A DNA stretch of 64,000 nucleotides, taken from assembly GCA_007376385.1 (NCBI GenBank), contig VMGC01000002.1, forward strand, positions 1 through 64,000, given 5' to 3'. The DNA comes from Parcubacteria group bacterium Gr01-1014_8. GTDB taxonomy: Bacteria > Patescibacteriota > Minisyncoccia > Phycocordibacterales > UBA2100. Every line of letters starts with the position of its first letter. Position 1 is the first letter of the stretch. A program made the position numbers and the translations under genes. Below the pieces are notes generated by a model, which was not told where the DNA came from, ran no database searches, and saw only the letters and a program-made list of their open reading frames with translations. Positions 10,031 to 19,637 of the stretch are shown in pieces.

Positions 10031-13000
10031 ATGCGAAACGCGCATGTCGCAGGTGTTTTGTTTGTAATTCTTGCAGCTACTATCTGCAGTGCTGCATTCA
10101 TAGCTCTCGGTTCATCATTTGTGCCTACTGCATCTGCACAAAGTGGACAGGGTAATTGCAAGACGCAATACGATGCGTGTATAAAGGCCGCGAATTCCGC
10201 TGCTGCGAAAGCACAGACCTCTGCGCAAGTACAACAGGCTGCGAAGGATAAAGCATCATGCATGCCGAAGTGGCGCACGTGCATGAACAAATGTAAGCAG
10301 CTTACGAAAGGTGCAGACGGTGCTTCGAGCTGTTCGACGGATAGTGAATGCAAAGGAAAACGCTGCAAGGATACCTATAACGATCTAACGAAAGAGAGAA
10401 AGTGTTGCGTAAATCTTTATGACCTCGGAAAAGAATCGCAAAATTCGTGCCCGAATGAAGTTACCTCTAGTGTAGGGCTGCGATGTTATGAAGATGCTGC
10501 GGCGCCTCATGACCCGACAAAAGGGGGAACGCCTGGGGGCACGCCATCTACGCCAGGCGGACAGCCGGAACAACCTTCGGGAGGAATGCCGCAAATTCCG
10601 CAACCGTCGCCGGGAGAAGGCTCACCGCCGAAAGAGCAACCCAAAGAAGAACCGACGCCAGAGCCGAAAAAGGAACCGACATTGTTTGAGAAATTCGCTC
10701 AGTATCTTGGAGGAGATACACCGAAGACAGATGATGCAAAATCACCGCTCGATTATTTCTTCAAGAAAGATGAGGTTGAGCTTGGTTCAACACCCGCTGA
10801 TACTTTAGGAAAGGATTTCCCCGATGCATCGGACAAATGGTGGAATGATGCTGTTGGGCAAAGCACATTCGGTGCGCCCGAAAATTCAGTAGTAACCACA
10901 GACCAGAGTAATTGGGAGCAATTCAAAGAACATATAGCAAATGGAGATATTGTCGCAGCGGGTGGAGATGTCATTGATGGCGCAAAAAATGTGCTTGGTC
11001 TAGGCGATGAAGTGGCTGCAGAGATTCCAGGCGATACAAAAACACTGACTGATGAAACTCCTGACGTGCCAAAAGAGGGACAACAATATGCTGAAGCAAA
11101 ACCCGGTGCCGCCCCGGAAAAACCGACGTCAGATTTAAGTAAAGAGGAGCAAAAGGCAATCACGGAAAAATCCCTGAAAGATACTGAAGCGAAGATCGCC
11201 GCTACCAACAAGGATCTTCAGAATCCCAATCTTGACGAAGCATCAAAAGAAGCACTTCGGGAAAATCTGAAGGACCTTCAATCGCAGCAAGCGGATCTTA
11301 AAAAGGAAATAAACGATCTCGCTAATCCTCCTGAGGCGATACGGAACAAAGCCATCATGGGTGAAGGTGCGCTAAGTGAACACCAACTGCCGTATGACGC
11401 CGAACCAGGGGGGAGAAAAGTATACGTTGAAACAGATGGACCGAACGGAAAGCATATCGTCGAAGTGGACTCGAAAACGGCGGGGACCGATGCCAATGGG
11501 AAGCCTACGACCCTGGGCGATATCGCCCAAGCAAATGGCGCCGGAAATTCGCCGACAAATCCGCTGCCGATGGATGCAGTGCGGTCAGCGGTGGGTGGAG
11601 ATGAAGGACTGAAGGCAATGACAACTCCTACTATAGAGAAGACAGGCGAGGCTCTTACATACAACCGGCCAGTCGGTCCTAATGATCAGGCAACTCTTGA
11701 TGTTAAAGTCGAAAAAAGTCCGGTCAGCAATTTATATGAAGTCAATCAAGATCCGCTGAAAGTCGCTTCGGAAGGGTATCAAGAGGGAGAGGGCAAAGTG
11801 GTGAACGAGGGCAAATTCCTTTTTGGTGAGGGAGCAAAACCACCACCCGCAGGGGAGCCACCTACAGCGGCGTCTCCGCCACCGCCTGCGGAATCTGAAA
11901 AAAGTGACGCATCAGTCGCACGCTCCCCGAATACGCCCGAAGAATATGCAAAAGCCGCCGAAGAAGCGATCAAGCGATCGATGGTAAATCTGGGGAATGG
12001 TTTTGCAAATGTCGTCGATGCCGCAAGAGAAGGAATTAGTAATGCTGCTGTTGAAGTTCAAAAATGGGCGCACGAGGCGAAACAAGCGGCAGCAGATGCA
12101 TACAATTATGTTGCCGGCACAATAGAAGATATACGTCCCGCAGGAAATCCTACAGACGTACAAGCGCCCTCCCCCGGGCCGGTGGCGCAGCAGCCGAGTC
12201 CATCGCCGGGCGATAATCCAGGCGGAGGCACTGTTGTACCTGATACACAAGGAACCATTCCTATAAAAGCGCCCACTGGTCCCGGAGATCAAAATCCTCC
12301 GGTTAAGTCTGGGGACGGATCGACTGATGGAGGAAAAACGGAACCAACGATTACTCCCACGGATAAACCTGGCAAAGACATAGACGCGCCTGTTCCTGAT
12401 CCGCAAGGGAAAACAAAACAACCGACAACGCCGAGTCCGGAAGGAAAGGAGCAGACGGTACCACAGCCTGCGCCGCCAAGCTCTCCTCCAAATCGGGGTT
12501 GGTTTAAAAGAATCGCCGATGCGCTCCGTGGTTTTCCGATTCCCGGTCCCTCACCTTCGCCGACAAATATCTCACCGTCCGTATTTCAACCGCAGCCACA
12601 AGGTCAAGATCAAAAGCAGGCCCCGCAGCCAACGCCTTCAGAAAAGAAAGGTCAACCGGAACCGGATCCGAAAGGGACCGCAAAAAGTAATTTTGCTCCG
12701 AAAACAAAAAATAACCTCCAGGAGTTTTTGGCAGATGCGCTCAAAAAATTCGCAGATGGAATTGCGAAGCGAACAGGTCAAGATCCTGGAGAAACTCCAG
12801 GAGGACAAGGTCCGAGCAAGACCGCGAAAGATAACGATCCGAATAAACCCCTTGGGAACAGCTTGGAGAATCCGAAGCAAGTGAAAGATGGAATTCCTGC
12901 GAAGAGCAATACCGGCGAAGCTGGAACCGGCAAAGGTCAGGAGGGAAAGCAGCAACAGCAGAAGGGAGCAAAAGACCAGGAAGGGCAGAAAAAAGGAGAC

Positions 13001-16000
13001 GATGGGAAGCAGGGAGTGCCATCTGGCACGCCAAGCAATACACCTGCGCCCCCTGACTTACCGCGACCGAATATGGTCGCGAAATTACAGGTACCGACTC
13101 CTGTAGCTTCGAATGACCCAAAGGGAAAAACCATCGAGGCTCAAAGCAAAGAGAATGTCCAAACACAGCCTGGCGATAGCGGGCAAGGGCAGGGACAGCC
13201 CAAAGGTGGAGGCAAATCTCTGCTTGAGAAACCGAGTTCTGAAAAAGTCGAAAACGCAACGCCGAGCCCGAGTCCTACCAGAGGTTTCCTTGCGAAGCTT
13301 CCAAATCCGCTTGTATCAATTCCAGGAAAAATAGTAGGCGTGAGTGCGCCTGACGGCGATGCAGTGCCAAGTCCGGCAGGCGATGTGATGCGAACGTCGG
13401 ATGGGCGGCTCAAAACACCGAGTATTTCTGGACGTTCATTGGAAGGACAGCCTGTCAAAGCCGTTGGAGATGCGAAGAAACTACTGCCGACTCTCATCTC
13501 GACGAGAGCTGAAGATGTGCGAGATTTTGTGAGAGGAAGCGGGGTCAGAACTCGGTTCGGTATCAAAGATTGTGCGGCAGCCCCTACTGGCTGGGTTTGT
13601 CAGAACTTAGGAGACATAGCGCAAAGGCAAGGATGTTCGCCTGGGGACCATTCGTGTTGGCAATCTGACGTTGCTGATGCGGAGGCATATTGGGCAAAGC
13701 TTCTCATGCAGCCAAATTACACGCGATGTCAGCCACTGACCGTGCAATGCATTATTAGCGGTCCTGATGGGAGAGGCAATTGGGTCGCCGATGATTCTGC
13801 ATGGAGACGTGCGCAAGGATTAGGCGGTACAGGCTCTAACGCTGACCATGTTGGCAGAGTCATCAGATTCATGGCCGAGAAAGGAGTAAATGTCCAGGGG
13901 AACACGCCTCTCGATCTGAATGATGCGAATGTGAGAAGGGCGTTGGCTTACGGTCAATCAAGAGCCGAACTTAGGGCAGGCGAGAGCGCATATGACGATA
14001 GCGTGATTGATACGGGTTATGAACGCGCTGTTGCGCGCGCTGGCGGAGCACCCCCGCCGCCAATTGTGCCGTCCACACCACCTGCGGCGATTCCGGTGCA
14101 ATCAACGCACGCGCAAGCTTTGCAAAAATATCAAGATGCATTGGCCTGCAAGGGCAATGAGTGTAGACAGCAGAAGATAGATGTTCGAAATCCCCAAGGT
14201 GTGTCGCCAGAGCTGGCGGAGCAAATAAAGCAGCGACATAGCACCGCTCCACAAAAACCTGGGTATGGTACGGAAGTGAACAAGGCGACTGTCATAGCCG
14301 ACCTTGCTGCGTGCGAGGCGATGGGGGGCGGCTGTGGCAGATTATCTTCGTCGGCCCGTTCGCCAGGACAGACGAGGCATGGTCCGGGAGATGCGATTGA
14401 CGTCACGTTCACCGACCCACAAACGCAAGGCACATATGCAGCGCTTTTCATGAACGGCGCCCATGCACTCGGGGCAACTCCTGGCATGGGTTTCAATACA
14501 GAATGCAGCACGGGTTGCATCGTACATGCAGACACGGTAGGCGCGAGTGCCGGACCTGGGGCAGCGAACGCGTGGGCCTATGGTCCTAACTGCGGAAGCG
14601 GAAGCAGCGACTGCATAAAAAATATAGTCGACCCACGGGTTCGTTCAATTGCGAATCTCGCGTATGCGGGGCAGCCGGTTCCTAATAACCTTGTTCCAGA
14701 ATCTATTACACCAGGGACTACGGTTCCAGGGGGGACACCCGCGAGTCAGGTTGTCCGTGGCCCACATGTTCCCGGTTCCGAGCCGGGCATTGTTCCGGGA
14801 AAGGAAGAAGCCAGCAGGTCGCCGGAGGAACAAAAGAAATTAGACGACGATGCGGCACGTGAAAAGCCAAGCCCCTCGGCCACAAAGTCTCCGCCTGGTC
14901 TCACTGGTGACGTTGCAAAAGACGCTGTAAATAAATTCTCACACGATCTTGGGCAAAGGGGATTTGTCTTTGGAAAGGACAGTAAGCTCCTCACGCCACA
15001 GGAAGCAGCAGAGCTATTCAAGAAAGGAGAAAAGCCGGATATCTATCTACCTCGCGACAAAGGTCCGAATCCATTTGCGAGCCCGGAGCAAAAAGCACAA
15101 TTTACGAAAGCTCCAAACGGGCAACATTATGAAAAATTCGAAGGGACTTTTGATGAGTATCGTCAGCGTCTGACGCAAGAATTAACAGCAGCCATTGAAA
15201 ATGCGATGCGTGACCAGCAGCTCAATTCGAAACCGGAGACGGAGAAACTTCGGGATGGAGGAAAACTTGTAACGAAGGGTGAGGGCCAGATACGCAATGT
15301 GTTTCGAGAAAAAGACGGAAAACTAAGTGACAAGCCTGTCGGTCAGGTGCGCGAGATAAGCAAAGAATTTGCGCAACTTCGAAAGGCAGTAGAACTGCAA
15401 GGCGACAAAGTGAAAGTGAAAGAAAAAAATGGACAGTTCAAAACAGAAGATGGAAGACGCGTCGAATTGCGTCCTGATACCGGCAAGGATGCGCCGCCGC
15501 CGTGCACTGATTTTACAAAATGTCATACGGGCGGAAAGATAGAGAATGGAAGATTTGTCGGAGCAGATGGTTCTAACATCGTGAATATACCGGGTGTTGG
15601 ACGCGTAAGATTTGAGCACAATCCATTCAGCCCGAATGCAGGAACGCAACGCGGAAATATGAGTGCGCTCGTCATCCATGAATTCAGAAACCCAGGCGGC
15701 GCAAGGAATGTTGATAGTACGGTGAGATGCCATCAGAACGGTTGCCGAGGAGGAGGCGTATATACGCAAGCGTATGTAAGCCAGCCCTATATTGCAGAGG
15801 ATGGAATGAAGGAAATACGCGTAGTTCAGCTCGGTTCGGCGTACGAGCGCAGTGGCCACGCGGGCTCGACACCGCTTGGCAGCCAGCCGGGACCCGGAAT
15901 AGAGAATGCGTGTCACGGAAGAGGAGATTGCAGTGATCCTCTGCAGATTGCGGCGAACGCTATTATGTATGACGCCTATCGTCAGCAATATCCGAATATG

Positions 16001-17200
16001 GCCGTGACGCATCACCAAGGGGATGAAGGTTTGCCTATTGCGCGTGCACTGTACGCACGCGTACAGGGCGGTTTGCAGGGTTCACTATCAGATGAGCCAG
16101 TCGCACTTTTCGCAGTATCGGAAAATGGAGATGCCGAGAAACTGGGCACCAGCATGAAGCCATCTGAACTTCCAGCGGCCGGCGGTACCGAATTCGAAAG
16201 TGTAGGGGACAATGGAAACCCAAATGGAGATGTCCGTATCGAACTTGATCCCATCAAGATAGGCACAGCAGACGTTCAGCCGACAATAGAAGGCGACAAA
16301 CTCGGTTTTGTCCCGACCTATACGCCGCCACCTCCTCCGCCCGCTCCACCGCCTCCTCCATCTTTTAGACAGAGAATGGCAGAAGCAGCGCGACGCCAAT
16401 TGGACAATTTGTCGAACGCGATGAAAAAAATGATGCAGCCGCCTAGCGGGGGCGGTGGAGGACAGCCGCAACCTCAACCGCAGCCACCTGTGCCACCTCC
16501 GCCTCCAATTCCACCAACATCGACAACGGGCGAGCCGAAAATAACCTGTACACCGACCGCTGCGATCGCGGATCAAAAAGTGAGAATTAAATGGTCGTGC
16601 CCTCCAACCCAGCTAGCAGTCGGCGTCGGCTTCGAGACCAAAGGTTTGGCGAATAGCGAAGTAGAAGTGCGCGTATCGAATGATAAGACACTATCGGAAG
16701 CGAAATATTCACTTCGCTGCGGAACGCTTCCGGAGCGTTCATGCACGGTGAAGATAGTCCGCCCGGCTATACTTATGATCGCCCAGCCTGGCGAAGTAGG
16801 ATCTGGGAAGACAACGAATCTAGCATGGGCGGCGACTCAAGTCCGAGTCTGCAAGATATACGACCCCGCATGCAAGGTTGTAGGTTCCGGTAATTCGGGT
16901 GGCAGAATAAAAACGAAAGCTCTGACTCGTTCAAGTACTTTCATGCTCGGCTGTGAGACAATTACAGGCGCAATGACCACGTCATCTGTTGTCGTAAAAG
17001 TGAAAGGAGATACGAAGGAACCACTTCCTGCGTGTCCGGCGGAAAGCATCCAACATGATGTTGTATTTACGACGAGCAGCTTGAACACTAAAAGTACTCC
17101 AACAGCCTACCCAGTACCATCTTCCAGCGGGTCCACAGAGCTGTGCAGTCCAAATCTTGATTTCGATTCTTTTATCAGATGTGTGATGGGTAAGAAGTAA
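10031..17200 (+). CDS. giant (2389 aa) secreted Cys-rich/Pro-rich surface protein (paralog family A) with two C-terminal beta-sandwich-like repeats
   Basis: It has a signal peptide. The N-terminal Cys-rich module is homologous to that of the 7198 gene. It contains long low-complexity P/G/Q/K-rich regions. A mid-region motif SPGQTRHGPGDAIDV resembles the HxxGxAxD zinc motif of peptidase M15/LAS enzymes (low confidence). The C-terminal domains show the VxxGxxxxxxW..C pattern. Confidence 0.85.
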   Translation: MRNAHVAGVLFVILAATICSAAFIALGSSFVPTASAQSGQGNCKTQYDACIKAANSAAAKAQTSAQVQQAAKDKASCMPKWRTCMNKCKQLTKGADGASSCSTDSECKGKRCKDTYNDLTKERKCCVNLYDLGKESQNSCPNEVTSSVGLRCYEDAAAPHDPTKGGTPGGTPSTPGGQPEQPSGGMPQIPQPSPGEGSPPKEQPKEEPTPEPKKEPTLFEKFAQYLGGDTPKTDDAKSPLDYFFKKDEVELGSTPADTLGKDFPDASDKWWNDAVGQSTFGAPENSVVTTDQSNWEQFKEHIANGDIVAAGGDVIDGAKNVLGLGDEVAAEIPGDTKTLTDETPDVPKEGQQYAEAKPGAAPEKPTSDLSKEEQKAITEKSLKDTEAKIAATNKDLQNPNLDEASKEALRENLKDLQSQQADLKKEINDLANPPEAIRNKAIMGEGALSEHQLPYDAEPGGRKVYVETDGPNGKHIVEVDSKTAGTDANGKPTTLGDIAQANGAGNSPTNPLPMDAVRSAVGGDEGLKAMTTPTIEKTGEALTYNRPVGPNDQATLDVKVEKSPVSNLYEVNQDPLKVASEGYQEGEGKVVNEGKFLFGEGAKPPPAGEPPTAASPPPPAESEKSDASVARSPNTPEEYAKAAEEAIKRSMVNLGNGFANVVDAAREGISNAAVEVQKWAHEAKQAAADAYNYVAGTIEDIRPAGNPTDVQAPSPGPVAQQPSPSPGDNPGGGTVVPDTQGTIPIKAPTGPGDQNPPVKSGDGSTDGGKTEPTITPTDKPGKDIDAPVPDPQGKTKQPTTPSPEGKEQTVPQPAPPSSPPNRGWFKRIADALRGFPIPGPSPSPTNISPSVFQPQPQGQDQKQAPQPTPSEKKGQPEPDPKGTAKSNFAPKTKNNLQEFLADALKKFADGIAKRTGQDPGETPGGQGPSKTAKDNDPNKPLGNSLENPKQVKDGIPAKSNTGEAGTGKGQEGKQQQQKGAKDQEGQKKGDDGKQGVPSGTPSNTPAPPDLPRPNMVAKLQVPTPVASNDPKGKTIEAQSKENVQTQPGDSGQGQGQPKGGGKSLLEKPSSEKVENATPSPSPTRGFLAKLPNPLVSIPGKIVGVSAPDGDAVPSPAGDVMRTSDGRLKTPSISGRSLEGQPVKAVGDAKKLLPTLISTRAEDVRDFVRGSGVRTRFGIKDCAAAPTGWVCQNLGDIAQRQGCSPGDHSCWQSDVADAEAYWAKLLMQPNYTRCQPLTVQCIISGPDGRGNWVADDSAWRRAQGLGGTGSNADHVGRVIRFMAEKGVNVQGNTPLDLNDANVRRALAYGQSRAELRAGESAYDDSVIDTGYERAVARAGGAPPPPIVPSTPPAAIPVQSTHAQALQKYQDALACKGNECRQQKIDVRNPQGVSPELAEQIKQRHSTAPQKPGYGTEVNKATVIADLAACEAMGGGCGRLSSSARSPGQTRHGPGDAIDVTFTDPQTQGTYAALFMNGAHALGATPGMGFNTECSTGCIVHADTVGASAGPGAANAWAYGPNCGSGSSDCIKNIVDPRVRSIANLAYAGQPVPNNLVPESITPGTTVPGGTPASQVVRGPHVPGSEPGIVPGKEEASRSPEEQKKLDDDAAREKPSPSATKSPPGLTGDVAKDAVNKFSHDLGQRGFVFGKDSKLLTPQEAAELFKKGEKPDIYLPRDKGPNPFASPEQKAQFTKAPNGQHYEKFEGTFDEYRQRLTQELTAAIENAMRDQQLNSKPETEKLRDGGKLVTKGEGQIRNVFREKDGKLSDKPVGQVREISKEFAQLRKAVELQGDKVKVKEKNGQFKTEDGRRVELRPDTGKDAPPPCTDFTKCHTGGKIENGRFVGADGSNIVNIPGVGRVRFEHNPFSPNAGTQRGNMSALVIHEFRNPGGARNVDSTVRCHQNGCRGGGVYTQAYVSQPYIAEDGMKEIRVVQLGSAYERSGHAGSTPLGSQPGPGIENACHGRGDCSDPLQIAANAIMYDAYRQQYPNMAVTHHQGDEGLPIARALYARVQGGLQGSLSDEPVALFAVSENGDAEKLGTSMKPSELPAAGGTEFESVGDNGNPNGDVRIELDPIKIGTADVQPTIEGDKLGFVPTYTPPPPPPAPPPPPSFRQRMAEAARRQLDNLSNAMKKMMQPPSGGGGGQPQPQPQPPVPPPPPIPPTSTTGEPKITCTPTAAIADQKVRIKWSCPPTQLAVGVGFETKGLANSEVEVRVSNDKTLSEAKYSLRCGTLPERSCTVKIVRPAILMIAQPGEVGSGKTTNLAWAATQVRVCKIYDPACKVVGSGNSGGRIKTKALTRSSTFMLGCETITGAMTTSSVVVKVKGDTKEPLPACPAESIQHDVVFTTSSLNTKSTPTAYPVPSSSGSTELCSPNLDFDSFIRCVMGKK

Positions 17201-17210
17201 TATCAGATGT

Positions 17211-17720
17211 ATGTTACGAGATTTCTTCAGAGGATTGGCCAAACGAGGACTTATACCTGTAAGCGTATTTTTGGTGCTAGCAGCATTTTCAGTGTGGGTT
17301 GGGACCGCACCACGATACGACGAGGAAGAATATCCTTCGTATCAGCAAGACCCGGGAGAGCTCAATATTTTCAACATTCTTGAAGGGGGCACCGTGCCGC
17401 AAACATTCGGCATCATTGGCGTTGCAAACGGTCAGTGGTTCTTTGATGGCTCTATGCCGGTAGAAGTTGTGACACCTGATGGAAACGTTATCTGGACAGG
17501 TCTTGCAGAAGCAACTGCAGGTGACTACATGAAAGACATCGAAATCCCATTTATTGCCAATGTTGACGTTGGAAACTACGTAGGACCCGTGGAAATAAGC
17601 ATTCGGCGCGCCTATCAAGGTGATGACCCTGCGTACGATAAAGAGTTTCGTATGCAGATAATTATCGAAGTTGATACCACGTCAGACCAACAAGACGCGC
17701 CGATGGAAGACTTGAATTGA
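17211..17720 (+). CDS. hypothetical secreted protein, possibly Gmad2/GerMN-like Ig domain
   Basis: 169-aa ORF with an N-terminal TM/signal segment. The pattern GQWFFDGSMPVEVVTPDGNVIWTG...GDYM is reminiscent of Gmad2-type domains. Confidence 0.55.
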   Translation: MLRDFFRGLAKRGLIPVSVFLVLAAFSVWVGTAPRYDEEEYPSYQQDPGELNIFNILEGGTVPQTFGIIGVANGQWFFDGSMPVEVVTPDGNVIWTGLAEATAGDYMKDIEIPFIANVDVGNYVGPVEISIRRAYQGDDPAYDKEFRMQIIIEVDTTSDQQDAPMEDLN

Positions 17721-17747
17721 ACCAGTCGAAGCGTATACTCTCCACAT

Positions 17748-18308
17748 ATGACACTTATCATCACACTTGGCGCAGCTGCGGTTTTGGTTCTTTGGGTTAT
17801 TTATGCATATAACCGACTTATTCAACTTACTAATCGCGGCGAGGAAGCGTGGTCGGATATCGACGTTCAATTGAAGCGCCGTTACGACCTCATTCCGAAC
17901 CTTGTGGAAGCAGTGAAAGGTTACATGACGCACGAAGCAGGAACTTTGCAGAAAGTGACCGAAGCCCGCACGAAAGCAATGGGCGCGCAGTCGGTTGGTG
18001 ACCACGCGGAAGCGGAAAATATGTTGACTGGCGCATTGAAGTCTTTGTTCGCAGTTGCGGAGAGTTACCCGGACTTGAAGGCGAATACGAACTTTGTTGA
18101 ATTACAACGAGAGCTGTCGGATACAGAAAATAAAATTCAAGCGGCTCGCAGGTTCTACAATTCTGTCGTGCAAGACCTTCAGAACGCACTTGAGTCATTC
18201 CCATCGAATATCATAGCCTCTTCATTTGGTTTCAAGACACGAGAATTCTTCACATTGTCGGAATCAGAGGCGGCTGCAGCAAAAGAGCCTGTGAAAGTTA
18301 GTTTTTAG
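17748..18308 (+). CDS. lemA: LemA family protein
   Basis: 186-aa ORF with an N-terminal TM segment and a conserved LemA core (YNRLIQLTN...RRYDLIPNLVE...RRFYN). Confidence 0.85.
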   Translation: MTLIITLGAAAVLVLWVIYAYNRLIQLTNRGEEAWSDIDVQLKRRYDLIPNLVEAVKGYMTHEAGTLQKVTEARTKAMGAQSVGDHAEAENMLTGALKSLFAVAESYPDLKANTNFVELQRELSDTENKIQAARRFYNSVVQDLQNALESFPSNIIASSFGFKTREFFTLSESEAAAAKEPVKVSF

Positions 18309-18331
18309 CCACTAGGGTATAGCCACTAGGG
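18309..18331 (+). repeat. left imperfect inverted repeat (tandem GCCACTAGGG units) flanking four-helix-bundle gene
   Basis: ccactagggtatagccactaggg is reverse-complement-related to 18713..18738 (ccctataccctaatggctaatggcta). Confidence 0.45.
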
Positions 18332-18334
18332 CGG

Positions 18335-18694
18335 ATGCAAACGTACAAAGATTTAATTGTTTGGCAACGGGGTGTCCAACTCGTGACTTCGGTGTACCAG
18401 TTGACAGAGAAATTACCCAAATCGGAAATATTTGGATTGACAAGCCAAATGCGACGATCAGCAGTTTCAATTCCCGCAAATATTGCCGAGGGGTATGCGC
18501 GCAAACATCGTGCGGAATATATCCAGTTCTTGAGAATTGCATATGGTTCGGGAGCGGAACTCGAGACACTCATGATAATCATTCAAAATTTAAGATATGC
18601 AAAAGGATCTGATATCAGAGAAGTCTCGGATTTACTAGATGAGACGATGCGCATGTTAAACAAGTTTATTTCATCGCTTACTCAAAAAACTTAA
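18335..18694 (+). CDS. four-helix-bundle protein (TIGR02436 / 23S rRNA intervening-sequence protein family)
   Basis: 119-aa ORF showing the family hallmarks (KDLIVWQ..., SIPANIAEGY.R....FL.IA.GS..E). Confidence 0.8.
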   Translation: MQTYKDLIVWQRGVQLVTSVYQLTEKLPKSEIFGLTSQMRRSAVSIPANIAEGYARKHRAEYIQFLRIAYGSGAELETLMIIIQNLRYAKGSDIREVSDLLDETMRMLNKFISSLTQKT

Positions 18695-18712
18695 TTTGCA
18701 TTTAACGCTAAA

Positions 18713-18738
18713 CCCTATACCCTAATGGCTAATGGCTA
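18713..18738 (+). repeat. right imperfect inverted repeat flanking the four-helix-bundle gene (overlaps the htpX start)
   Basis: See 18309..18331. Confidence 0.45.
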
Positions 18739-19637
18739 GTCTGTACACCCAAAAAGGAGCGAATATACGGCGGACGTGGCTTCTCATGACCGCGTTCTTT
18801 CTCCTCGTAATCGCGATTGGCTACGTCATGGCGTGGTATCTGGATAATCCAGGCATCCTCTACATCGCCGTCGCATTCAGCATCATGATGAACATCACAG
18901 CATATTGGTTCTCGGATAAGATAGCGTTATCTTCTACGGGCGCGAAAGAAGCAGACCCGACTCAATATCTGGAATTGCATCGTGCTGTCGAGAATCTTGC
19001 TATCACCGCAGGGCTTCCAAAGCCGCGTGTGTACGTCATTGACGACCCTGCGCCAAATGCGTTTGCTGCAGGAAGGAATCCTAAGCATGCGGTTGTTGCG
19101 GTTACTACCGGACTCCTCGCGCGCTTGGAAAAAACAGAATTGGAAGGCGTATTGGCGCACGAACTTTCGCACATTGGGAACAGGGACATTCTCGTAATGA
19201 CAGTAGCCGTCGTCCTCGCGGGATTTGTATCTGTCCTTGCGGATCTCTTCTTGAGATTCAGTTTTTTCAGCGGGGGAAACAGCAACAGTAGAGAGGGGAA
19301 AAATCCCGTGATGCTTATCATGGGTATCGTGGCGATAATTTTGGCACCGATTGCGGCACAATTGATACAGCTTGCGATATCGAGGAAGCGGGAATTTTTG
19401 GCGGACGCCTCCGGCGCGCTCCTCACGCGCTATCCAGACGCGCTAGCCTCAGCACTCAAGAAAATATCTTCGTACCAGGCGCCGATGCGAAGAGCAACAC
19501 ATGCAACTGCGCACCTTTTTATCTCGAATCCATTTGGTGCAGATGGAAGAGGAAAATTCATAGCAAAAATGTTCATGACGCATCCTCCTGTAGAGGAACG
19601 TATTGCCGCACTCGTTGAGATGCGGAATGTGCAATAG
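18732..19637 (+). CDS. htpX: HtpX-like M48 zinc metalloprotease
   Basis: 301-aa ORF with TM segments and an HELSH (HExxH) motif. Confidence 0.9.
   Translation: MASLYTQKGANIRRTWLLMTAFFLLVIAIGYVMAWYLDNPGILYIAVAFSIMMNITAYWFSDKIALSSTGAKEADPTQYLELHRAVENLAITAGLPKPRVYVIDDPAPNAFAAGRNPKHAVVAVTTGLLARLEKTELEGVLAHELSHIGNRDILVMTVAVVLAGFVSVLADLFLRFSFFSGGNSNSREGKNPVMLIMGIVAIILAPIAAQLIQLAISRKREFLADASGALLTRYPDALASALKKISSYQAPMRRATHATAHLFISNPFGADGRGKFIAKMFMTHPPVEERIAALVEMRNVQ

Follow-up and report, generated by a model that had tools for sequence, protein, structure and literature searches.

Intervening sequences (IVSs) that contain an open reading frame (ORF) interrupt the 23S rRNA of Leptospira, Coxiella burnetii, and bacteria with IVSs of the Xanthomonas/Brucella type. 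The location by which such an element is recognized lies inside helix 9, 25, or 45 of the 23S rRNA. In Coxiella, the IVS is closed by a 28-bp terminal stem within which RNase III cleaves, leading to its excision, and three or four tandem GACAGAT heptamers, the number of which varies between strains, are located upstream of its ORF (PMC4990558). ORFs annotated as 23S_rRNA_IVP also occur in rRNA insertions of the candidate phyla radiation (PMC11270868), and the proposal that IVSs are, or once were, mobile is an old one (Ralph & McClelland 1993, as cited in PMC4990558 and PMC3936711). Here, we describe what seems to be an IVS-type element outside rRNA, located between the genes lemA and htpX in the first 64,000 nucleotides of contig VMGC01000002.1 of the Kaiserbacteria-like Parcubacteria group bacterium Gr01-1014_8 (assembly GCA_007376385.1; this whole stretch is referred to below as the window). 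It consists of a gene encoding a four-helix-bundle (4HB) protein and of two tandem heptamer arrays which bracket this gene in inverted orientation. The same array-bracketed architecture, with units specific to each cassette, surrounds most of the 4HB genes that we sampled, including one inside a 23S rRNA, and as a general signature it seems to be previously undescribed.

Tandem heptamers of a seemingly similar kind make up the short tandemly repeated repetitive (STRR) sequences of cyanobacteria. In many bacteria, no long simple-sequence repeats (LSSRs) are commoner than those with a heptanucleotide unit (Mrazek 2007, cited in PMC4679880), and abundant unexplained intergenic heptamers, among them the TAACTGA repeat of the Beggiatoaceae, have been reported, some of which carry stop codons in all frames (PMC4679880). 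In Geobacter metallireducens, 24 + 21 + 8 pairs of arrays with units of 7 to 9 nt, placed on opposite strands at variable distances, were interpreted as regulator sites (PMC2700814). These paired sites lie inside operons, e.g., nifD-nifK and proB-proA, and copies of ISGme8 (IS110) and ISGme9 are found at fixed distances from them (PMC2700814, Table S4).

An earlier reading of the window, made from its sequence only, had placed a 4HB gene between lemA and htpX, with ccactagggtatagccactaggg (18309-18331) right after the lemA stop codon and ccctataccctaatggctaatggcta (18713-18738) overlapping the htpX start; both the gene and its flanks are confirmed at these places by the sequence and by family matches. 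That reading also took the flanks to be inverted relative to each other and to be built of GCCACTAGGG/TATA units. The first part stands, since a repeat search identified an inverted repeat of 18 nt, complementary at 17 of 18 positions and with arms 392 nt apart, which brackets the 4HB gene (Table 1). Its score was reached by none of 5,000 shuffles of the two flanks, so that the similarity passes the shuffling test, and by no other pair among 2,542 equally spaced flank pairs across the window; moreover, the 14-mer CCAYTAGGGTATAG occurs at just these two sites in the 64 kb. The second part had to be revised, as the flanks consist of tandem heptamers in register, the units of the right array being of the reverse-complement type of those of the left array. 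Tandem Repeats Finder recovered the right array with period 7 at 18704-18738 and detected no other period-7 array elsewhere in the window.

The lemA stop codon doubles as the first TAG of the left array, a single nucleotide separates the end of this array from the 4HB ATG, and the htpX ATG is located in the last heptads of the right array. The cassette therefore fills the whole lemA-htpX spacer, its arrays reaching from the stop codon of lemA to the start codon of htpX. With TAG recurring every 7 nt, the left array therefore supplies stop codons in all three frames, and the right array does likewise, with TAA and TAG on the plus strand and TAG on the minus strand. The three genes share one orientation, and the G+C content of the 4HB gene is 40.6%, versus 47 to 51% for its neighbors.

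The inserted gene encodes, by its sequence, a member of the PF05635/TIGR02436 family that is related to the pentameric protein XCC0516. The protein scored 129.5 bits against PF05635 (cutoff, 33.8; E = 7e-38; model positions 1-106 of 106), 126.6 bits against TIGR02436 (cutoff, 24; E = 5e-37; full length), and 149.6 bits against NF008911 (cutoff, 137). The closest solved structure by sequence is that of XCC0516 (PDB 2GSC; E = 5.6e-22 over residues 4-115), which was crystallized with five chains as a pentamer of four-helix bundles and which is cited as a homopentamer in the Coxiella study (PMC4990558). The motif GxxRxxxSxxxNxxE is present, with S45, N49, and E52 invariant and G34, R40, and R41 nearly invariant in the 4HB alignment. 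No PADLOC defense-system family matched the protein at E <= 0.01, and no phage copies were found at E <= 1e-6.

The statement of the sequence-only reading that lemA and htpX are commonly adjacent agrees with what we found in relatives. We gathered 80 genome loci through HtpX, in 70 of which both genes could be placed, and in about half of these 70 the spacer measures only 3 to 85 nt; because the two genes adjoin in so many relatives, the 4HB gene is an insertion. A 4HB gene occupies the same spacer in loci L004, L006, L167, and L168 (64 to 73% identity to the window protein), in L125 and L062 (52 to 54%), and in L008, whose product is 29% identical and belongs to a different subfamily. Comparison of these spacers revealed the repeat similarity expected for a cassette, as each of these relatives carries its own inverted arrays of short units: TAGCCAC/TAGGGTA upstream and ...AAACCCTAG TGGCTA downstream in the clade of the window, TAGTCAC-type heptads in L062, and 9-nt units in L008, TTCTAAGCG upstream and CGCTTAGAA downstream. 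In L007, an in-frame deletion has left a remnant of about 43 codons (26 N-terminal and 17 C-terminal amino acids) between two arrays that are both kept (L007:2802-3001).

All contigs bearing the exact LemA or 4HB protein of the window contain the cassette, and the three closest HtpX relatives (L182, L183, and L184; 83 to 85% identity) all lack the 4HB gene. The spacer of L184 is 81 nt long, while that of L183 (HtpX identity, 85%) is a 49-nt sequence made of four NNAAGCT heptads, GCAAGCT AAAAGCT GTAAGCT GACAGCT (L183:617-667). In L182 (HtpX identity, 85%; L182:1333-2001), lemA and htpX are separated by a gene for a 71-amino-acid antitoxin-like protein and one for a ParE toxin, and the window-type right arm, together with the stretch after the 4HB stop codon (tttgcatctaaacgttattaactataccctagtgacta-ATG), is retained before htpX; here, a toxin-antitoxin module has replaced the 4HB ORF inside the old arms. 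Since L182 has kept this right arm and post-stop sequence and the 4HB gene is absent from the closest relatives, the cassette is old in the lineage and the site has turned over repeatedly. Among relatives, the site may be empty, hold arrays alone or a remnant left by deletion, carry a 4HB gene of another subfamily, or harbor a toxin-antitoxin module within arms that were kept.

Some of the spacers without a 4HB gene have features of their own. An "empty" one at L010:2949-3001 contains a 7-bp hairpin, AGCGAAC/GTTCGCT, followed by GTTCACT units, and the heptad-built "empty" spacers of L183 and L010 look like scars of other cassettes. Two further spacers (L014:468-595 and L016:2875-3001) hold a different element, roughly 125 nt long and free of heptads and ORFs, whose terminal inverted repeat measures 20 bp (caaaaacaag...cttgtttttg). 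In L004 (1899-2579), an IS200-like (Y1_Tnp) transposase gene is located 3' of htpX, and its own flanks form an inverted repeat with a score of 16. We also considered the lemA-htpX spacer as a general insertion hot spot and rejected this idea, as distant relatives with larger inserts carry ordinary genes in this spacer (NUDIX, GGDEF, metallo-beta-lactamase, and others) and not cassettes.

The sequence-only reading suggested that the 4HB gene moves as a hairpin-bounded cassette and raised the question of whether other 4HB genes in the genome carry the same flanking units. The window holds no further 4HB gene and no further copy of the flanking motifs, and on this point the support comes from relatives, which either share the units or have matched arrays of their own. 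The nearest 4HB homologs (65 to 76% identical) occupy at least three genomic contexts, all with the unit types of the window: the lemA-htpX spacer; the frr-rseP spacer (P0004 and loci L165/L166); and a site 3' of a gene for a large protein, convergent with a 156-amino-acid gene (P0003, P0079, L084, and L085). Identity among the 4HB proteins follows neither context nor host relatedness, as L167 and L168 share 58% identity in HtpX and 75% in 4HB, while L167 and L062 share 74% and 60%, respectively. The recurrence of the same units in three contexts, the mismatch between 4HB and HtpX identities, and the low G+C content of the gene therefore support the view that what spread between sites is the cassette together with its arms, a movement which we infer from these comparative data. 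Array length evolves faster than the gene; in L101 and L102, the genes are 95% identical and the arrays differ by several units.

The generality of this architecture was assessed in 80 metagenome loci gathered through the 4HB alignment, which contain 73 to 76 distinct cassettes with 43 to 71% identity to the query. The 70 nt upstream of each gene were compared with the 70 nt downstream, and an inverted-repeat score of at least 12 was considered strong. Such scores were obtained for 40 of 76 4HB genes versus 7 of 533 other genes (1.3%) in the same loci, and for 38 of 73 matched arm pairs versus 2% of pairs that mix flanks from different cassettes; in direct orientation, just 7 of 73 reached the threshold. 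The 7 exceptions are neighbor effects. Other candidate cargo, namely, CheB, a GspH-like pseudopilin, PrgI, and DUF4422, was likewise rejected as reflecting such effects, either adjacent 4HB cassettes or complete hairpins in each spacer. The ParE module in L182 is the only genuine cargo other than 4HB that was found within retained arms. The density of strong arrays is one per 2.3 kb around 4HB genes and one per 38 kb in the htpX-centered loci.

Period 7 predominates, with some cassettes using 8 or 9, and wherever both arrays were called (27 of 27 cassettes), the two sides share one period; it follows protein relatedness. The arrays have a median of about four units (10th to 90th percentile, 2.4 to 6.6). 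A purine/G-rich upstream arm, as read on the coding strand, was found in 66 of 73 cassettes, and a C-rich downstream arm in 54 of 74. About 20 nt separate the end of the left array from the 4HB ATG, while the right array often begins within the last codons of the ORF. The upstream neighbor is on the same strand in 63 of 69 cases and the downstream neighbor in 50 of 61. The gaps to these neighbors measure about 55 nt and consist mostly of array; the median distance is 3 nt from the upstream stop codon to the beginning of the left arm and 15 nt from the end of the right arm to the downstream start codon. That the units belong to the individual cassette is well illustrated by the L151 contig, on which three cassettes each have their own matched heptamer (AGCTGCG, GGGTCTG, and TAGGGAT).

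Beside some 4HB cassettes, G-rich and C-rich arrays of the same unit alternate in successive spacers (L102:3819-4573, L110:1168-2335, L098:2380-4863, and L133:2400-4620). Some of the same-unit hairpins in these four loci have short loops and no ORF; they may be counterparts of ORF-less IVSs or non-autonomous derivatives of the cassettes.

Such cassettes were seen in Patescibacteria, Cyanobacteria, Alphaproteobacteria, and Gemmatimonadota and, according to the literature, occur in Gammaproteobacteria. Cultured organisms share the architecture. Cyanobacterial instances include a 4HB gene with inverted AGTCAGG arrays on Nostoc punctiforme pNPUN02, one with AAAAGGG/TCCCTTT arrays in Geminocystis, and a cassette with inverted GGAGATA-type arrays on a plasmid of Picosynechococcus sp. 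PCC 7003 (NZ_CP016476.1; L173:1156-1585), which lies between cas10/cmr2 and cmr3 in a type III-B CRISPR operon. On plasmid 1 of Gemmatirosa kalamazoonensis, a high-GC replicon from the Gemmatimonadota (L174:1050-1700, in an unannotated record), four CTCCTGCC octamers are located 3' of the 4HB gene, and its upstream flank carries a G-rich array beside a C-rich array, that is, a complete hairpin.

The rRNA counterpart was found at an unannotated locus on the Azospirillum lipoferum 4B plasmid AZO_p2; according to Rfam, the whole locus is 23S rRNA, and a 4HB ORF lies inside it. This ORF is flanked by CAGAGGA-CGGATGA-CAGAGGA-CGGAGGA on the left and by TCCGTCC-TCTGTCT-TCTGTCA-TCCGTCT on the right. 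The occurrence of the family in 23S rRNA IVSs with the ORF in a stem-loop, on which the sequence-only reading relied, is thus borne out by the Azospirillum copy and by the published Coxiella IVS (PMC4990558). Because of the Azospirillum arms and the Coxiella data, we regard the rRNA IVS and the operon cassette as one architecture that occurs in host transcripts of two kinds.

The features of the locus are collected in Table 1. Directly upstream of the region, an ORF of 2,389 amino acids (10031-17200) encodes a low-complexity protein rich in Pro, Gly, and Lys for which no Pfam family is recorded; it is followed by an ORF of 169 amino acids (17211-17720) without a Pfam match.

Table 1. Features of the lemA-4HB-htpX locus, in window coordinates
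Feature	Position	Strand	Description
Sigma-70-like promoter match 5' of lemA	17712-17739	+	TTGAAT-16-TATACT, 9/12; consensus match only
lemA	17748-18308	+	186 aa; PF04011, 3e-60; TAG stop 18306-18308
Left arm, best inverted repeat	18305-18322	+	TTAGCCACTAGGGTATAG
Left heptamer array	18306-18333	+	TAGCCAC TAGGGTA TAGCCAC TAGGGCG; 4 x TAGNNNN
4HB ORF	18335-18694	+	119 aa; PF05635 23S_rRNA_IVP, TIGR02436
Right heptamer array	18706-18740	+	CGCTAAA CCCTATA CCCTAAT GGCTAAT GGCTAGT; 5 x NNCTANN
Right arm, best inverted repeat	18715-18732	+	CTATACCCTAATGGCTAA
htpX	18732-19637	+	301 aa; M48 zinc metalloprotease; Peptidase_M48 and HtpX NCBIfam models

We consider it rather probable that the window element is an IVS-type 4HB cassette residing in an mRNA operon, which is transcribed by read-through, folds into a stem of about 28 bp, is processed by RNase III, and spreads together with its arms. 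The unit consists of a purine/G-rich tandem heptamer array, the 4HB ORF, and a complementary array. It would lack a promoter of its own and depend on read-through from that of lemA. Within the transcript, pairing between the arrays would loop out the 4HB ORF and set the lemA stop codon beside the htpX start codon. RNase III would then cleave the stem, as it does in the rRNA IVSs of Coxiella and Leptospira, and the ORF RNA would be excised without ligation. Such a cleavage would leave both flanking cistrons intact, or at least juxtapose them, and the insertion would therefore cost the host little; the stem would tolerate slippage, because tandem units can pair in any register. In the clade of the window, the tandem units would in addition supply stop codons in every frame.

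The predicted fold of the RNA spanning 18290-18750 agrees with this scheme, as a terminal stem of about 28 bp closes the ORF in both the minimum free energy and the centroid structures (z = -3.2; none of 100 shuffles folds as well) and the lemA stop codon at its predicted base is directly opposite or beside the htpX ATG. No promoter-like or terminator-like sites were detected in either spacer of the 4HB gene. The sigma-70-like match 5' of lemA is a possible source of read-through into the cassette, in a region where promoter-like sites are no more frequent than in shuffles. For the RNase III-processed stem itself, our confidence, built on analogy and on the predicted fold, is moderate.

Several observations weigh against this interpretation. 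Co-transcription and RNase III cleavage are assigned to this organism by analogy. G·U-compatible mismatches are not enriched on the sense strand (66 versus 57; p = 0.47), the sense RNA duplex is only weakly favored over the antisense one (50 versus 26 cassettes; Wilcoxon p = 0.07), and the lone mismatch in the stem of the window is a C·A on the sense strand; because no clear strand bias exists, the pairing could equally act in DNA. About one-quarter of the sampled 4HB genes have no significant matched arms within 70 nt, and spacers in L098, L133, and L101/L102 each hold a complete hairpin instead of one arm. Near the cassette of the window, no target-site duplication, recombinase, or reverse transcriptase was seen. 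Finally, by sequestering the htpX start codon, the stem might impose a cost and not be neutral.

The lack of strand bias in wobble-compatible mismatches speaks for a mobile element acting at the level of DNA, an explanation which we rate as rather unlikely. The arrays would then be subterminal binding-site repeats, like those at the ends of En/Spm and Ac/Ds, or hairpin/cruciform sites, recognized by the 4HB pentamer or by a recombinase acting in trans, and the pairing in RNA would be incidental. Such an element would account for arms that match within a cassette and differ between cassettes even in one genome, for the co-inheritance of arms and gene across sites with a period that follows protein relatedness, and for the ORF-less hairpins of the same unit beside 4HB cassettes, in the manner of non-autonomous derivatives. 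However, there is no transposase or recombinase in or near the cassettes, target-site duplications are not seen, and, apart from resembling Avd, the 4HB protein carries no catalytic or DNA-binding motif that is known, while the strong co-orientation with host operons and the stop-to-start placement are easier to account for in RNA.

The pentameric nature of XCC0516 brings to mind a different role, that of an autoregulatory RNA-binding module, in which a toroidal 4HB pentamer would bind the heptamers of its own mRNA, one unit per subunit, as TRAP binds GAG/UAG repeats, and would control its own translation or the coupling between cistrons, with the 3' array serving as an anti-array. A median of about four units, a left array that ends shortly before the 4HB ATG, a purine/G-rich upstream arm in most cassettes, and a unit sequence and period that follow the protein clade all fit this picture. 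It is a pure analogy, though, and the correlation between protein and unit is accounted for just as well by inheritance of both within one cassette; the number of units varies, is not sharply centered on five, and is not diagnostic, and in Coxiella, work on the IVS suggests that its protein is not even translated (PMC4990558). We regard this explanation as improbable.

The recurrence of at least three 4HB types in the lemA-htpX spacer (that of the window, that of L062/L125, and that of L008) and the absence of 4HB genes elsewhere within ±3 kb of htpX in the 80 loci could be taken to mean that the 4HB gene is a functional accessory of a LemA/HtpX membrane-stress operon and that the repeats are ordinary regulatory or spacer sequence. 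The context data largely refute this very improbable explanation, since most relatives, including the closest, L183, lack the gene, equally close homologs with the same arms occur in frr-rseP and another context, family members are found in rRNA and in a cmr2-cmr3 operon, and a ParE module occupies the same arms in L182. As for a chance or slippage artifact, whereby both spacers would have gained simple repeats independently and their complementarity would be coincidental, heptanucleotide repeats are indeed common in bacteria, but the explanation is refuted by the shuffling test and the uniqueness of the repeat in the window, by matched arms that far exceed mismatched ones and always share their period, and by the rarity of arrays away from 4HB genes in these genomes.

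The window instance thus appears to be an ordinary member of a large, under-described class, and lemA-4HB-htpX is to be read as an interrupted lemA-htpX operon and not as a functional unit of three genes. Three puzzles have stood apart for about thirty years, namely, the origin of IVSs and their ORFs, the intergenic heptamer repeats of cyanobacteria, Geobacter, Beggiatoaceae, and others, and the function of the abundant 4HB family. Our evidence ties them together, as the ORF and its pair of inverted arrays behave as one heritable unit, present in rRNA and in mRNA operons and turning over at its sites. In a full-text literature search, outside which most subscription papers lie, we found no paper that links PF05635 genes generally to inverted heptamer arrays, nor, in the literature searched, one that places a single such unit in both mRNA operons and rRNA; the search returned just the remark on the Coxiella heptamers and unlinked reports of heptamer repeats.

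Tentatively, one may go further and view PF05635 4HB genes and their inverted arrays as one widespread class of selfish cassettes, whose pentamer would recognize its own units and promote the maintenance or spread of the cassette, and of which the ORF-less hairpins would be non-autonomous derivatives. If true, this would unify rRNA IVSs, much of the intergenic heptamer load (STRR/LSSR and the Geobacter paired sites), and the supposed CRISPR association of the family. Confirmation that the ORF and its arrays form one heritable unit would provide a simple signature by which cassettes and their ORF-less remnants could be annotated and would caution against taking 4HB genes in cas or stress operons as functional partners. 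It would also provide a testable model, in which a slippage-tolerant stem that RNase III can cleave lets a selfish gene ride essential transcripts cheaply.

When the locus is compared with known systems, the closest is the rRNA IVS. Like an IVS, the window element has a PF05635 ORF in the loop, in sense with the host transcript, and is closed by terminal inverted repeats, which are predicted to form the enclosing stem; the Azospirillum copy, with four or five inverted heptads per side, shows the same arrangement. Unlike an IVS, it resides in a protein-coding operon, as no rRNA was detected in the window with Rfam and the element lies between protein-coding genes, and its arms adjoin a stop codon and a start codon, whereas those of an IVS restore an rRNA helix. 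Excision by RNase III has been demonstrated for rRNA IVSs and is proposed for the window by analogy. The arrays also resemble the intergenic heptamer repeats in their short tandem units, mostly of 7 nt, located in spacers and often directly upstream of start codons, and the four plus five imperfect heptads of the window conform to the STRR/LSSR-type definition of at least three tandem 7-nt copies in an intergenic spacer. The reports on such repeats, in contrast, see regulator sites or unexplained repeats, many of them solitary or without a gene, and neither PMC4679880 nor PMC2700814 draws a link from heptamer arrays to PF05635 genes or IVSs. The "paired global regulator sites" of Geobacter resemble the ORF-less array pairs near 4HB cassettes.

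The 4HB protein shares a homologous four-helix-bundle fold and a family clan with the Avd proteins of diversity-generating retroelements (DGRs). The Avd models nevertheless scored far below their cutoffs (PF22296 bAvd, 22.7 versus 40 bits, E = 1.4e-4; NF033474, 25.5 versus 80 bits, E = 1.2e-5), and no reverse transcriptase domain was found among the genes called within 3 kb, template and variable repeats not having been searched. To our knowledge, inverted heptamer arrays are not a described feature of DGRs. Miniature inverted-repeat transposable elements and other elements with terminal inverted repeats are similar in being small inverted-repeat-bounded units at various sites, with ORF-less hairpin relatives nearby; the ends of the 4HB cassettes are, however, tandem simple repeats of variable copy number and not unique terminal inverted repeats, and in the window the inverted ends are accompanied by no direct repeat immediately outside the arrays, upon inspection, and by no transposase nearby, although a factor may act in trans. 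Integron cassettes are likewise promoterless and inserted co-directionally into operons, but they have a single 3' attC and sit in arrays beside intI, whereas the window element is a lone cassette between housekeeping genes, with repeats on both sides and no integrase among its neighbors. A last comparison concerns CRISPR systems, as 23S_rRNA_IVP genes between cmr2 and cmr3 were interpreted as a functional CRISPR association (Zhang, Doak & Ye 2014; PMC3936711). The Picosynechococcus copy occupies the same cmr2-cmr3 position as these genes, and its array brackets suggest that the CRISPR-associated 23S_rRNA_IVP genes are cassette insertions into cas operons.

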